From assembly GCF_011045215.1 (NCBI RefSeq), contig NZ_CP049201.1: a stretch of DNA of 64,000 nucleotides; one strand, written 5' to 3'. The position numbers and the translations under genes are program-made. This document shows positions 7,911 to 59,294 of this stretch, piece after piece; positions within the stretch are counted from its first letter, which is position 1; the number at the start of each line of letters is the position of its first letter. This stretch comes from Escherichia coli (lineage in GTDB: Bacteria; Pseudomonadota; Gammaproteobacteria; Enterobacterales; Enterobacteriaceae). The notes beneath the pieces were generated by a model. It was not told the origin of the DNA. It worked only from the letters and a program-made list of their open reading frames with translations, and made no database searches.

Positions 7911-8456
7911 ATGAGTGCCAATGAAAACAACCTGATTTGGATCGATCTTGAGATGACCGGTCTGGATCCCGAGCGCGATCGCATTATTGAGATTGCCACG
8001 CTGGTGACCGATGCCAATCTGAATATTCTGGCAGAAGGGCCGACCATTGCAGTACATCAGTCCGATGAACAGCTGGCGCTGATGGATGACTGGAACGTGC
8101 GCACCCATACCGCCAGCGGGCTGGTGGAGCGCGTGAAAGCGAGCACGATGGGCGATCGTGAAGCTGAACTGGCAACGCTCGAATTTTTAAAACAGTGGGT
8201 GCCTGCGGGTAAATCGCCGATTTGCGGTAACAGCATCGGTCAGGATCGTCGCTTCCTGTTTAAATACATGCCGGAGCTGGAAGCCTACTTCCACTACCGT
8301 TATCTCGATGTCAGCACCCTGAAAGAGCTGGCGCGCCGCTGGAAGCCGGAAATTCTTGATGGTTTTACCAAACAGGGGACGCATCAGGCGATGGATGATA
8401 TCCGTGAATCGGTGGCGGAGCTGGCTTACTACCGCGAGCATTTTATCAAGCTGTAA
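7911..8456 (+). CDS. orn: Oligoribonuclease (3'-5' exoribonuclease, DEDDh family)
   Basis: ATG at 7911 gives 181 aa starting [20 protein letters not shown] (exonuclease motif I); the longer 229-aa ORF from 7767 is an in-frame upstream extension. Confidence 0.93.
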
Positions 8457-8581
8457 AATTTTTGCTGGTCACGTAAGCGCCGGAATCCACTTGCGGCGGC
8501 GTGATTTTGACGCTAAATTGAACGTCTTGCTGATAATTTCAGCACTTGAGATAAAAACTCAAAAAAAATTTTTTAGGGGGG

Positions 8582-8609
8582 TTGCAGAGGGAAAGATTTC
8601 TCGTATAAT
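8582..8609 (+). promoter_or_regulatory. Sigma70 promoter for the tRNA-Gly gene (-35 TTGCAG at 8582-8587, -10 TATAAT at 8604-8609)
   Basis: Consensus -10 and near-consensus -35 with 16-nt spacer, A/T-rich UP-like tract upstream (8561-8580) and GC-rich discriminator GCGCCTCCC downstream, as typical of stringently controlled stable-RNA promoters. Confidence 0.7.
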
Positions 8610-8666
8610 GCGCCTCCCGTAACGACGCAGAAATGCGAAAATTACGAAAGCAAAATTAAGTAGTAC

Positions 8667-8742
<76 letters not shown>

Positions 8743-8749
8743 AATTCTT

Positions 8750-9011
8750 CTCTCAATAAAATATCCACAGCGACGCGATGCGTTATTGCTGGTTTTTGTT
8801 GTCTCTGACAAACTCTTGTAAACAGAGTTATCCACAGCCTCAGGCTGTAATCTTAATTTCAAAGAAACTTCGCACGGTGAATAGTATTTTTTTAACCTAT
8901 TGATAGGTAAGTTAAAAATTAAGATTCCGTTTTGTCGAGTCGATCACTTGACGATTTTATTCGTCTTGAATTGCAATGCGTTTTTATTTTTATTCACAAG
9001 CTGTGGATGAA
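8750..9011. promoter_or_regulatory. datA: datA-like DnaA-titration locus: DnaA-box cluster with a putative IHF site
   Basis: DnaA-box 9-mers at 8761-8769 (ATATCCACA, 8/9), 8828-8836 (TTATCCACA, 9/9), 8990-8998 (TTATTCACA, fits TTATNCACA) and 9002-9010 (TGTGGATGA, complement form, 8/9); IHF-consensus match TAACCTATTGATA at 8893-8905 with flanking A/T tract; position between the tRNA-Gly gene and queG matches where I remember datA. Confidence 0.7.
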
Positions 9012-10149
9012 TCAGGCGTCACGCGGTAACCCTTTTTCAATCACCCGAACCAGACGCTGTTTTTTCGGCAATTGCACTTCGACTATGCACGCATTTCGCC
9101 TCTCGATTTGCTGCGCCATCGCCCACGCTATGTGCTCATCAAGAAGTGGGTGCTCACCTTTGCGACTCTCCAGCGCCGCCAGAATCGTTTCATCCCAGGG
9201 CGCATTGCCTAATGCCACGGCGATATTACGCAGCCAGCGCAGGTGACCTATACGGCGAATCGCCGAACCTTCCGTGACTTTTAAAAACCTCTCTTCGCTC
9301 CAGGCGAATAACTCAATGAGTTCCGGTGCGTGTAGCGGCTTACGCGGGCTGAAATCGTCTTCTGTAGTGAGTTGTGAATAGCGATTCCACGGGCAGATAA
9401 GCTGGCAGTCATCGCAACCGTAAATACGGTTTCCCATTAACGGTCGCAACTCTTCCGGGATCGCCCCTTCCAGTTCGATGGTGAGATAAGAGATACAGCG
9501 GCGAGCATCGACGGTATATGGCTCGACGATGGCACCGGTCGGGCAAATCGTCATACAGGCCACGCATTTGCCGCATCCTTCCTCGACTGGTTGATCCACG
9601 GGCAGCGGAATATCGACCAGCAATTCGCCTAAAAAGAAGAACGAACCGGCCTCGCGATTGAGGATAAGTGAGTGCTTACCTGTCCAGCCGAGCCCAGCTT
9701 TTTCAGCTAACGGGCGCTCGAGAATAGGCGCAGAATCGACAAACGGTCTAAAATTCAGCGAAACACAATGTTGCTGAATCATCTCGCCCAGCTTTTTGAG
9801 TCGGTTGCGCAGAAGTTTGTGATAGTCACGGCCCAGCGCATAACGGCTAACATAGCCGAGTTTGGGGTTTTTCAGCGTGCTGGCAAATGCGGCGTTAGCA
9901 GGAAGGTAATTCATCCGCACGCTGATCACGCGCAGCGTACCGGGCAATAACTCATGGGGGCGAGCGCGCAGCATACCGTGACGTGCCATCCAGTCCATTT
10001 CGCCGTGGTATTGTTTGTCCAGCCATGCTTGCAGTTTGGGCTCGGACTCGCTGAGATCGGTATCGGTAATACCTACCTGCTGAAAGCCCAGTTCCAGCCC
10101 CCACTGTTTAATTTTTTGCGCTAACTGATTGAGATCGAGGGGCTCTGAC

Positions 10150-10151
<2 letters not shown>
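9012..10151 (-). CDS. queG: Epoxyqueuosine reductase QueG (YjeS), cobalamin/4Fe-4S enzyme
   Basis: ORF 9012..10259; 379-aa protein starts MSEPLDLNQLAQKIK at ATG 10149-10151; ferredoxin-type Cys clusters (CGKCVACMTICP, CDDCQLICP). Confidence 0.9.
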
Positions 10152-12130
<1,979 letters not shown>

Positions 12131-40876: not shown

Positions 40877-41184
40877 ACATACCTCCTCGACGGCTGACTT
40901 TGTGTGCTCTCCTCTGTGATGATCTTCTGATTTAATTTTAATCAATGATAAAGAAGTTGATGGTGACCATTTCTGATGCAGTTGTTCAAAAAAACACCAT
41001 GATGAAGTGTGATGAACTTCAAATCAGCGTGTTAGTCCACTTTGGTGAAAGATGAGATTTATTTGTCGGCTGGCCTTGAGTTTAGCGGGGTATGTCAGTA
41101 CTATAACGCGTCATTTTTCAGCCGACCTTTAACACGTTCCTTGCCTCCCCGGGATTCGGCTGACCCAGACAGGAGGCTGAATAA

Positions 41185-41598
<414 letters not shown>

Positions 41599-43728: not shown

Positions 43729-44078
43729 TTATTCTACGCTGTCGGTATTGGTGTATTCGTTAATCAGCAGGTTAACCAGCCACAAAAAGCCATTGAGAAA
43801 ATTATTGATTTTACATGGAATTATTATATTGCCAATCCTTGGTTTTTAAAAATTGTGCATAGTGAAAATCAAAGTAAAGGTGTGCATTATGCAAAATCAC
43901 AGCGTCTCTTAGAAATTACCCATGCGCACTTGCAGTTAATGGAATCCTTATTGGATGAAGGGAAGAAACACAATATTTTTAAGCCAGATATCGACCCATT
44001 TCAGGTGAATATTAATATTGCTGCGCTTGGGGGATATTATTTGATCAACCAGCATACGCTTGGCCTGGTTTATCCGGT
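43729..44078 (+). pseudogene. ytfA: TetR-family regulator fragment (C-terminal ligand-binding region only), apparently interrupted at its 3' end by the IS element
   Basis: Open frame from 43729 (GTG 43855 is the first listed start) encodes ...[30 protein letters not shown]...[16 protein letters not shown]..., resembling a TetR C-terminal domain; no N-terminal HTH is encoded upstream; from about 44080 the frame reads antisense through IS sequence. Confidence 0.6.
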
Positions 44079-44130
44079 GCGCCGTAAAACCCCGTCCTTC
44101 AGGGCGGGGATATACGGCGCGGTTTTCCAC

Positions 44131-44558
44131 CTAACCAGGTGTTTGCTGTTGTTCAATGTATTGACGGATGGCGGATATTGGCGCACCTCCGCAGCTACTG
44201 GCAAAATAGCCAGGACTCCACAAAACGCCTTTGTAGTAATACCTGACTGCAATATCTGGTCGATCTCGTCGCAGTAACCTACCCGATACGCCTTTGAGGC
44301 TGTTTACCAGACTGGATATCGCCAGTTTGGGAGGATAGTTAATTAACAAACGTGATCTGGTTCGCCATCCATTTCAACCAGTTCAGCTTCAAAATCAGCA
44401 CATACCTTTGAAAAGTAAGTGCGTAGTTTTTCTGTCGCGTCATGGTCAAAAATCTGGCGTCGGTATCTGGTGACAAAGACCAGGTGAACATGCATCAGGA
44501 AAACACAATGCCTTCCACGCCGGATATCGGTTTCTTTTTTCACAGACCAAAGTATCAT
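44131..44558 (-). pseudogene. tnpA: IS200/IS605 TnpA (Y1 HUH transposase), disrupted by a frameshift
   Basis: Two adjacent ORFs in different frames (44343..44558 and 44131..44349) together give a ~143-aa TnpA-like protein: ...HCVFLMHVHLVFVTRYRRQIF...EPDHV / [26 protein letters not shown]...[26 protein letters not shown]; the break is inside the HUH motif. Confidence 0.8.
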
Positions 44559-44565
44559 TTGGCCT

Positions 44566-45774
44566 GTGAAACGACTACAGGCATTTAAATTCCAGTTAAG
44601 ACCCGGTGGTCAACAGGAGCGTGAAATGAGGCGCTTCGCAGGCGCATGTCGTTTCGTTTTCAATCGTGCTCTGGCACGTCAGAATGAGAATCATGAGGCC
44701 GGTAATAAATACATCCCTTACGGGAAAATGGCTTCCTGGCTGGTTGAGTGGAAAAATGCCACTGAAACGCAATGGCTTAAAGATGCCCCGTCACAGCCAT
44801 TGCAACAGTCACTGAAAGACCTTGAGCGGGCTTACAAAAACTTCTTCCGGAAGCGGGCTGCTTTTCCCCGATTCAAAAAGCGGGGACAGAATGATGCATT
44901 CCGCTACCCGCAGGGCGTTAAGCTCGATCAGGAAAACAGTCGTATTTTTCTGCCGAAACTTGGCTGGATGCGCTACCGGAATAGCCGTCAGGTCACGGGT
45001 GTTGTGAAAAATGTCACTGTCAGCCAGTCCTGCGGTAAGTGGTACATCAGTATTCAGACTGAAAATGAAGTATCAACTCCGGTTCACCCTTCAGCATTAA
45101 TGGTCGGACTGGATGCTGGCGTGGCTAAACTCGCCACGCTGTCAGATGGCACAGTCTTTGGGCCTGTAAACAGTTTTCAGAAAAACCAGAAGACGCTGGC
45201 GAGACTTCAGCGACAGTTAAGCCGCAAGGTCAAATTCAGCAACAACTGGCAGAAGCAGAAACGCAAAATACAGCGACTGCATTCCTGTATCGCAAATATC
45301 CGCAGGGACTACCTTCACAAAGTCACAACGACCGTCAGCAAAAACCACGCAATGATAGTCATTGAGGATTTGAAGGTCAGCAACATGTCAAAGTCAGCAG
45401 CGGGTACGGTCAGCCAGCCGGGGCGCAATGTCCGGGCAAAATCAGGTTTAAACCGTTCGATACTGGATCAGAGCTGGTATGAAATGCGCCGCCAGCTTGA
45501 GTACAAGCAGCTCTGGCGTGGCGGTCAGGTGCTTGCTGTTCCGCCAGCGTACACAAGCCAGCGTTGCGCGTGCTGTGGTCATACAGCGAAAGAAAATCGC
45601 CTGTCACAAAGTAAATTCAGATGCCAGGCATGTGGATATACAGCGAACGCTGATGTAAATGGCGCTCGTAACATTTTAGCGGCGGGGCACGCCGTTCTTG
45701 CCTGTGGAGAGATGGTGCAGTCAGGCCGCCCGTTGAAGCAGGAACCCACCGAAATGATTCAGGCGACAGCCTGA
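44566..45774 (+). CDS. tnpB: TnpB (OrfB) of an IS200/IS605-family element; RuvC-like RNA-guided endonuclease family
   Basis: 402-aa ORF from GTG 44566; N-terminus [13 protein letters not shown]...[12 protein letters not shown] typical of TnpB; RuvC-I (VGLDAGV), RuvC-II (IVIEDLKV), zinc finger (CACCGH...CQACGY) and RuvC-III ([10 protein letters not shown]) all present; an alternative ATG at 44626 with an AGGAG SD would give 382 aa. Confidence 0.9.
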
Positions 45775-45908
45775 ACGTAGCAGGGATCCACGTCCTTCAG
45801 GGCGTGGAGGATGTCAACACATCAGTATGGTTTCACCCCAGGCACTGGAAGCCAGACGTAAGGTCATCAAAGAGACAATCCTTAGCTGGCTTTTGGTTGA
45901 CCCTTCAT

Positions 45909-54385: not shown

Positions 54386-54574
54386 CAGGGACATCCTTTT
54401 ATCATCGGGAATACGAAAGAAAAGGGAGAATAAACGTCTTACTTATAGAACAGTGAAGAATGCCACAATTTTACGCTTTGAAAATGATGACACTATCACA
54501 GTTGGCGCATTCATTAACGATAGGGTATAAGTAAAACAATAAGTTAACACCGCTCACAGAGACGAGGTGGAGAA

Positions 54575-59018: not shown

Positions 59019-59194
59019 ATCTTATCCGACCTTTCAGGCCAGATCCTCGGAAGGGGAAGTTGATTAATTTGTGTGAAATACACATTGAAAGCCGATTCGA
59101 AGAAAGTGAACCGGCATTTTCAGTGGCTAGTATAGCGTAAGGTACTGTAAAGTCGCCAGAGGGTTAAAATTCAGACTGCTGATAAATGCAATAC

Positions 59195-59294
59195 TGCCTG
59201 ATGCGCTATGCCGATCAGGCCTACGCAGTCCTTGCAATATATTGAATTTGGACGATTTTGTAGGCCTGGTAAGGCGTTTACGCCGCATCCGGCA
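59195..59294. repeat. BIME: two REP elements in inverted orientation
   Basis: TGCCTGATGCGCTATGCCGATCAGGCCTACG (59195-59225) and TGTAGGCCTGGTAAGGCGTTTACGCCGCATCCGGCA (59259-59294). Confidence 0.75.

Follow-up and report, generated by a model that had tools for sequence, protein, structure and literature searches.

The datA locus and its single-copy tRNA-Gly neighbour in an Escherichia coli genome

The segment at positions 8750-9011 of the window, the whole 64-kb stretch of Escherichia coli DNA that was analysed, lies between a tRNA-Gly(GCC) gene and the 3' end of queG. Its sequence identifies it almost certainly as the published E. coli datA locus, intact, ordinary and like that of K-12. The locus is an already known element. 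datA is one of four known loci or systems that cycle E. coli DnaA between its active and inactive forms. As described for E. coli, it sits approximately 0.47 Mb from oriC, on the replichore shared with DARS1; this position is conserved, and the distance from oriC bears on the timing of datA action.

Identity and context of the locus

The window was collinear with MG1655 4383139-4432999 and beyond at approximately 98-99% identity (98.3-99.0%), and the gene order rsgA, orn, tRNA-Gly, datA, queG (minus strand) and nnr was collinear with MG1655. Local synteny around datA was intact in this comparison; oriC lies outside the 64-kb window. The tRNA-Gly gene and datA through the queG stop codon were collinear with MG1655 4392583-4393015, and the datA region aligned position by position to MG1655 4392659-4393015, an interval that lies 3' of glyY and adjoins the queG stop codon. 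Between the 3' end of the tRNA and 9099, the sequence found downstream of glyY was reproduced with G8907 as the sole mismatch. The literature places datA at 94.7 min (4.39 Mb), downstream of glyV-X-Y and between yjeV and queG (PMC5742627, PMC10950094, PMC10380432). The initial annotation had recognized a datA layout in this cluster, and the alignment bore this out: datA maps to this interval of the reference and not elsewhere.

Two annotated genes meet the locus at its downstream end. yjeV, a small ORF of 17 codons (8976..9029, plus strand; MG1655 annotation, sequence identical here), overlaps DnaA boxes 3 and 4. The stop codon of queG, which encodes epoxyqueuosine reductase (9012..10151, minus strand; MG1655 annotation and alignment), abuts box 4. 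In the Rfam search the tRNA alone was matched in this region, so datA contains no known structured RNA.

All named datA elements and their spacings were identical to those of the experimentally characterised MG1655 locus. The likeness to K-12 datA covers boxes 1, 7, 2, 3 and 4, the IHF site, the spacings, the attenuator, yjeV, the queG junction and the flanking gene order. The locus differs from its K-12 counterpart in carrying G8907 in the flank of the IHF site, in having one upstream tRNA-Gly gene instead of three, with the promoter 223 bp closer, and in three base changes just 5' of the -35 element of the tRNA promoter.

Elsewhere in the window, approximately 1.74 kb at 44074-45818, at the site of the ytfA pseudogene, was absent from MG1655. 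This insert carries a 402-aa TnpB-like ORF (44566-45774, plus strand) and two short minus-strand ORFs (44131-44349 and 44343-44558) that resemble a split TnpA of IS200/IS605 type; from a reading of the translations, it appears to be an IS605-family insertion. At 2167-2353, approximately 187 bp stand in place of MG1655 yjeN-yjeO (approximately 740 bp, 4385305-4386046), which suggests that both genes are absent or replaced in this strain. Rfam matches at gathering level were found for an RpsF leader (41121-41205) and for the sRNAs ES239 (54386-54508), STnc450 (59080-59137) and ES036 (59217-59259), all of which are ordinary enterobacterial features.

DnaA boxes, the IHF site and their conservation

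A rescan of the segment returned four DnaA boxes and one IHF consensus at exactly the positions given in the initial annotation. Box 1 (ATATCCACA, 8761-8769, plus strand) has one misfit, and box 2 (TTATCCACA, 8828-8836, plus strand) is a perfect box of high affinity. Box 3 (TTATTCACA, 8990-8998, plus strand), also of high affinity, is oriented like box 2 and like box 7, which is described below; box 4 (TCATCCACA, 9002-9010, minus strand) has one misfit and an orientation opposite to that of boxes 7, 2 and 3. Between boxes 2 and 3 lies the IHF site (8893-8905), which reads TAACCTATTGATA on the plus strand and TATCAATAGGTTA on the minus strand, where it matches WATCAANNNNTTA. The gaps from box 2 to the IHF site (56 nt) and from the IHF site to box 3 (84 nt) are the MG1655 values. 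An earlier count of two perfect boxes depends on the consensus chosen: against the usual TTATNCACA both box 2 and box 3 are perfect, but against the strict TTATCCACA box 2 alone is.

Three elements, boxes 1 and 2 and the IHF site, are fixed to the base because published mutagenesis primers and a published table define them. Among the primers published with a 2024 paper, the subDnaAbox2 pair replaces exactly the box 2 9-mer, swapping the TTATCCACA that follows GACAAACTCTTGTAAACAGAG for AACATGTGT. The subIBS primer changes TTGATA of TAACCTATTGATA to AAGTAC and thereby defines the IHF site, and the delta-TglyV-X-Y primers, which delete the attenuator, flank the segment containing the attenuator and box 1. 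The supplement of a 2015 comparative study tabulates the MG1655 datA IHF site as the reverse complement of 8893-8905, identical to the site here.

The essential core of datA has been described as box 7, box 2, the IHF site and box 3 (PMC5742627), and box 3 has been reported as essential in several sources (PMC10950094, PMC5742627, PMC5835720). We infer that box 7 is TTGTAAACA at 8816-8824 (plus strand), a low-affinity box with two misfits that is identical in MG1655 and lies 3 bp upstream of box 2 in the same orientation. The assignment is tightly constrained, because this was the sole plus-strand box with two misfits beside box 2 in the box scan, because the span from box 7 to box 3 (8816-8998) is 183 bp, the exact size of the published minimal datA (PMC5742627), and because the sequence is conserved. 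Box 1 is dispensable for DnaA-ATP hydrolysis and overlaps the tRNA operon attenuator (for the overlap, PMC10950094), and published datA work describes box 4 as stimulatory in vitro and non-essential in vivo. The initial annotation had judged the essential elements to be intact. They are identical to those of MG1655, but its set omitted the essential box 7 and included the dispensable box 1 and the stimulatory box 4.

A review counts 'two consensus and four 1-misfit boxes' in datA (PMC5835720). The same count was obtained here, with boxes 2 and 3 as the consensus boxes and with boxes 1 and 4 and two boxes inside queG (9373-9381 and 9659-9667, both on the minus strand; box scan) as the 1-misfit boxes, giving six boxes with at most one misfit across approximately 900 bp. 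In the original datA fragment of 1 kb, the queG-internal boxes are probably the outer ones.

DnaA boxes with one mismatch occur often in this DNA, with 18 in the 64-kb window against 11.8 expected, and four of them together with an IHF match could be read as a random cluster in AT-rich intergenic sequence. We consider this vanishingly improbable, and cluster statistics and cross-species conservation led us to reject it. Boxes 2 and 3 were the sole perfect TTATNCACA matches across the 64 kb and the IHF site was the sole WATCAANNNNTTA match. No other part of the window was as dense in boxes with one mismatch or none as this stretch, which has four in 262 bp; the Poisson probability was approximately 1e-6 per 262-bp interval (TTATCCACA, one mismatch), or approximately 2.5e-4 after correction for the number of intervals. 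The arrangement of boxes and IHF site is also kept across a whole bacterial order.

This conservation was seen in a pattern scan of one genome per species (TTATCCACA, N45-70, TAANNNNTTGAT, N70-100, TTATNCACA), which returned at least 120 loci. Among the matches listed were 55 Enterobacterales loci, including those of Salmonella, E. albertii, Serratia, Pantoea, Edwardsiella, Cedecea, Rahnella, Photorhabdus, Xenorhabdus, Providencia and Morganella; queG was beside the match in 53. In these 55 loci the gap from box 2 to the IHF site was 55-58 nt and the gap from the IHF site to box 3 was 83-87 nt, ranges far narrower than the 45-70 and 70-100 allowed by the search, and 28 of the 55 had exactly the gaps of 56 and 84 nt found here. 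Most of these orthologues lie directly downstream of tRNA-Gly(GCC) genes, as the present locus does, but the distance to the tRNA genes is hundreds of bases greater in some Photorhabdus and Morganella. The orthologues share the box 7 core with the present locus and differ from it in divergent spacer sequences and a poorly kept box 4.

Ungapped profiles, with box 2, the IHF site and box 3 as anchors, were used to assess per-position conservation, since a free MAFFT alignment of 52 datA sequences (the window and 51 orthologues) was too gappy for positions to be read. In the profiles of the 55 Enterobacterales loci among the matches listed, T8816, T8819 and A8822-A8826 were strongly conserved. 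These positions, which lie outside the search requirements, make up the core of box 7 and the junction between boxes 7 and 2. In the same profiles box 4 was weakly conserved, which fits its non-essential role in vivo.

A T-rich tract (TTTTATTT, 8982-8989) abuts the 5' side of box 3 and is conserved at approximately 1-1.8 bits per position in the 55 Enterobacterales species among the matches listed. The tract is unlike a DnaA box and falls outside the verifiable named datA elements; it could serve as a bend or flank element.

Position 8907, which lies 2 nt beyond the IHF 13-mer, carries G here and A in MG1655. The exact 60-mer carrying G8907 was present in 29 of 5,426 complete E. coli genomes, and the position was weakly conserved across species (ungapped profiles, 55 Enterobacterales loci among the matches listed). 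The substitution is most likely neutral, judged from these comparisons.

The pattern scan also found loci outside the order. In Sutterella, Parasutterella, Pelistega and other Burkholderiales, a pattern of box, IHF-like site and box occurred directly downstream of hemE, often with gaps of 59 and 87 nt and with extra paired DnaA boxes (loci L003, L008, L009, L017, L022, L023 at 11560-11780, L045, L048, L065, L086, L099, L102, L110 and L116). Such a pattern probably marks a DnaA-box cluster of the origin type and not a datA relative. Further matches came from Veillonella, Moraxella, Neisseria, Chryseobacterium and alphaproteobacteria.

The tRNA-Gly operon upstream of datA

The cluster had been described as lying just downstream of a tRNA gene, and a single tRNA-Gly(GCC) gene was indeed found at 8667..8742 (plus strand; ARAGORN; Rfam tRNA, 69 bits), ending 18 nt before box 1. 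Its sequence is identical to those of glyV, glyX and glyY, the three tandem genes present at this site in MG1655. The alignment thus supported the difference in tRNA copy number mentioned in the initial annotation: in this strain a single tRNA stands between the leader of glyV and the trailer of glyY, a clean loss of 223 bp or two repeat units, which is the outcome expected from recombination between identical repeats.

Single-copy arrangements were counted with a 276-nt query of leader, tRNA and trailer (8567-8842) at an E-value cut-off passed solely by an uninterrupted match. The arrangement was present in 14 of 5,426 complete E. coli genomes, spread over unrelated backgrounds that included the K-12 strains MC1061 and OV2 and the O104:H4 strain 2011C-3493; two copies were apparent in fewer than 110 further genomes. 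Three copies are the norm across Enterobacterales. Where the whole interval was covered, among the matches listed, 21 of 26 species had three tRNA-Gly genes and two species had two; the range among the matches listed was 2 to 7, with seven tRNA-Gly(GCC) copies in Enterobacter ludwigii (L104). Set against these counts, the single copy would be either a rare, recurrent and derived state or else an assembly collapse. It leaves datA itself untouched.

Read-through transcription across datA has been attributed to the glyV-X-Y promoter (PMC10950094). This promoter is likely to lie at 8582..8609 (plus strand), a placement that rests on the sequence and its identity to MG1655: a -35 element TTGCAG (8582-8587), a 16-nt spacer and a -10 element TATAAT (8604-8609). 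A sigma-70 consensus promoter scan of 8400-9150 called no site, and the tRNA promoter was missed because its -35 element matches the consensus at 3 of 6 positions. The promoter core was identical to that of MG1655, with identity from 8576 onward. Three bases differed from MG1655 at 8559, 8569 and 8575, in an A/T-rich stretch just 5' of the -35 element that is a possible UP-element region.

The terminator/attenuator of glyV-X-Y (8765..8797, plus strand) is formed by a hairpin (8765-8792) and the T-run behind it (8793-8797); it is identical to that of MG1655 and overlaps box 1. The predicted RNA fold of 8743-8812 had a free energy of -14.3 kcal/mol (z = -1.9). The operon that would supply read-through matches MG1655 in promoter core and attenuator, and differs from it in having one tRNA gene instead of three and in the three bases 5' of the -35 element.

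The shortened operon brings promoter and IHF site 223 bp closer together, and the level of read-through could in principle change. It is very unlikely, in our estimation, that the collapse of the tRNA-Gly genes goes beyond a neutral loss of repeats and shifts the amount or timing of the read-through that evicts IHF, and hence the timing of DnaA-ATP hydrolysis at datA (DDAH) and the control of initiation, together with a lower tRNA-Gly(GCC) dosage.

Proposed function and alternative readings

In K-12, ATP-DnaA and IHF both bind datA, which stimulates DnaA-ATP hydrolysis, and loss of datA leads to untimely initiation (PMC5742627, PMC5835720). DDAH lowers initiation potential independently of RIDA (PMC10950094, PMC5742627), and deletion of datA causes extra, asynchronous initiations and a modest fitness cost (PMC5742627, PMC10950094, PMC4585315, PMC5835720). 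Read-through transcription is needed to clear IHF from the locus and is damped by the attenuator and by DnaA bound to box 2 (PMC10950094). By its identity to the K-12 locus, we infer that binding, hydrolysis and read-through control operate in this strain as well.

The mechanism would then run as follows. ATP-DnaA would assemble head to tail on the co-oriented boxes 7, 2 and 3, with box 4 aiding assembly. After initiation, IHF bound at its single site would bend the DNA so that DnaA on boxes 2 and 7 meets DnaA on box 3. The resulting hydrolysis of DnaA-ATP would leave less initiation-competent DnaA and suppress untimely re-initiation, independently of RIDA. Before the next initiation, transcripts from the tRNA-Gly promoter that read past the attenuator, which box 1 overlaps, and across the IHF site would clear IHF from datA, and the attenuator and DnaA on box 2 would dampen this read-through.

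oriC and DARS2 resemble datA in that each has DnaA boxes and an IHF site that is occupied differently as the cell cycle proceeds (PMC10950094, PMC5742627). oriC differs from datA in having a duplex-unwinding element and many low-affinity boxes and in promoting initiation; DARS2 differs in its oppositely oriented core boxes and Fis sites and in regenerating ATP-DnaA. Neither layout was present at the datA stretch, and a second replication origin was ruled out, as the segment has no unwinding element and no array of low-affinity boxes.

datA was initially isolated as a fragment with exceptionally strong DnaA binding, and the original 'DnaA titration' view would make the cluster mainly a passive DnaA sink and not a catalyst of ATP hydrolysis. 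Reviews state that datA also titrates DnaA directly (PMC5835720), and the six boxes with at most one misfit in approximately 900 bp support a sink. However, point mutation of box 2, box 7 or the IHF site gives the phenotype of the full deletion, and DDAH accounts for most of the apparent titration (PMC5835720). An IHF-site substitution that spares DnaA binding but has the complete deletion phenotype has been reported for K-12. A plain sink needs no constraint on spacing or orientation, yet such constraint was seen in 55 species among the matches listed. We regard a mainly passive role as unlikely. Local transcription control is another reading, in which the boxes and the IHF site would obstruct tRNA-Gly read-through as roadblocks, or would regulate yjeV or queG, and replication control would come second. 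It draws on the overlap of box 1 with the attenuator hairpin, on the position of boxes 3 and 4 inside yjeV and against the queG stop codon, and on the finding that IHF at its site and DnaA at box 2 cut read-through RNA (PMC10950094). The same work found these roadblock effects dispensable for initiation timing (PMC10950094), whereas the effect of datA on ATP-DnaA level and initiation has been demonstrated (PMC10950094, PMC5742627), and a primarily transcriptional role seems distinctly improbable. Transcription-control and replication-control roles of datA are compatible and do not exclude one another.

Hydrolysis of DnaA-ATP at an IHF-bent locus stays the preferred reading of the segment, and the intact datA confirms standard replication-control equipment in this strain. 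The single-copy tRNA-Gly operon is the one mildly unusual point here, and work on read-through ties this operon functionally to datA. The natural variants with one, two, three and seven tRNA-Gly copies could provide ready material for examining how tRNA operon structure bears on datA control.
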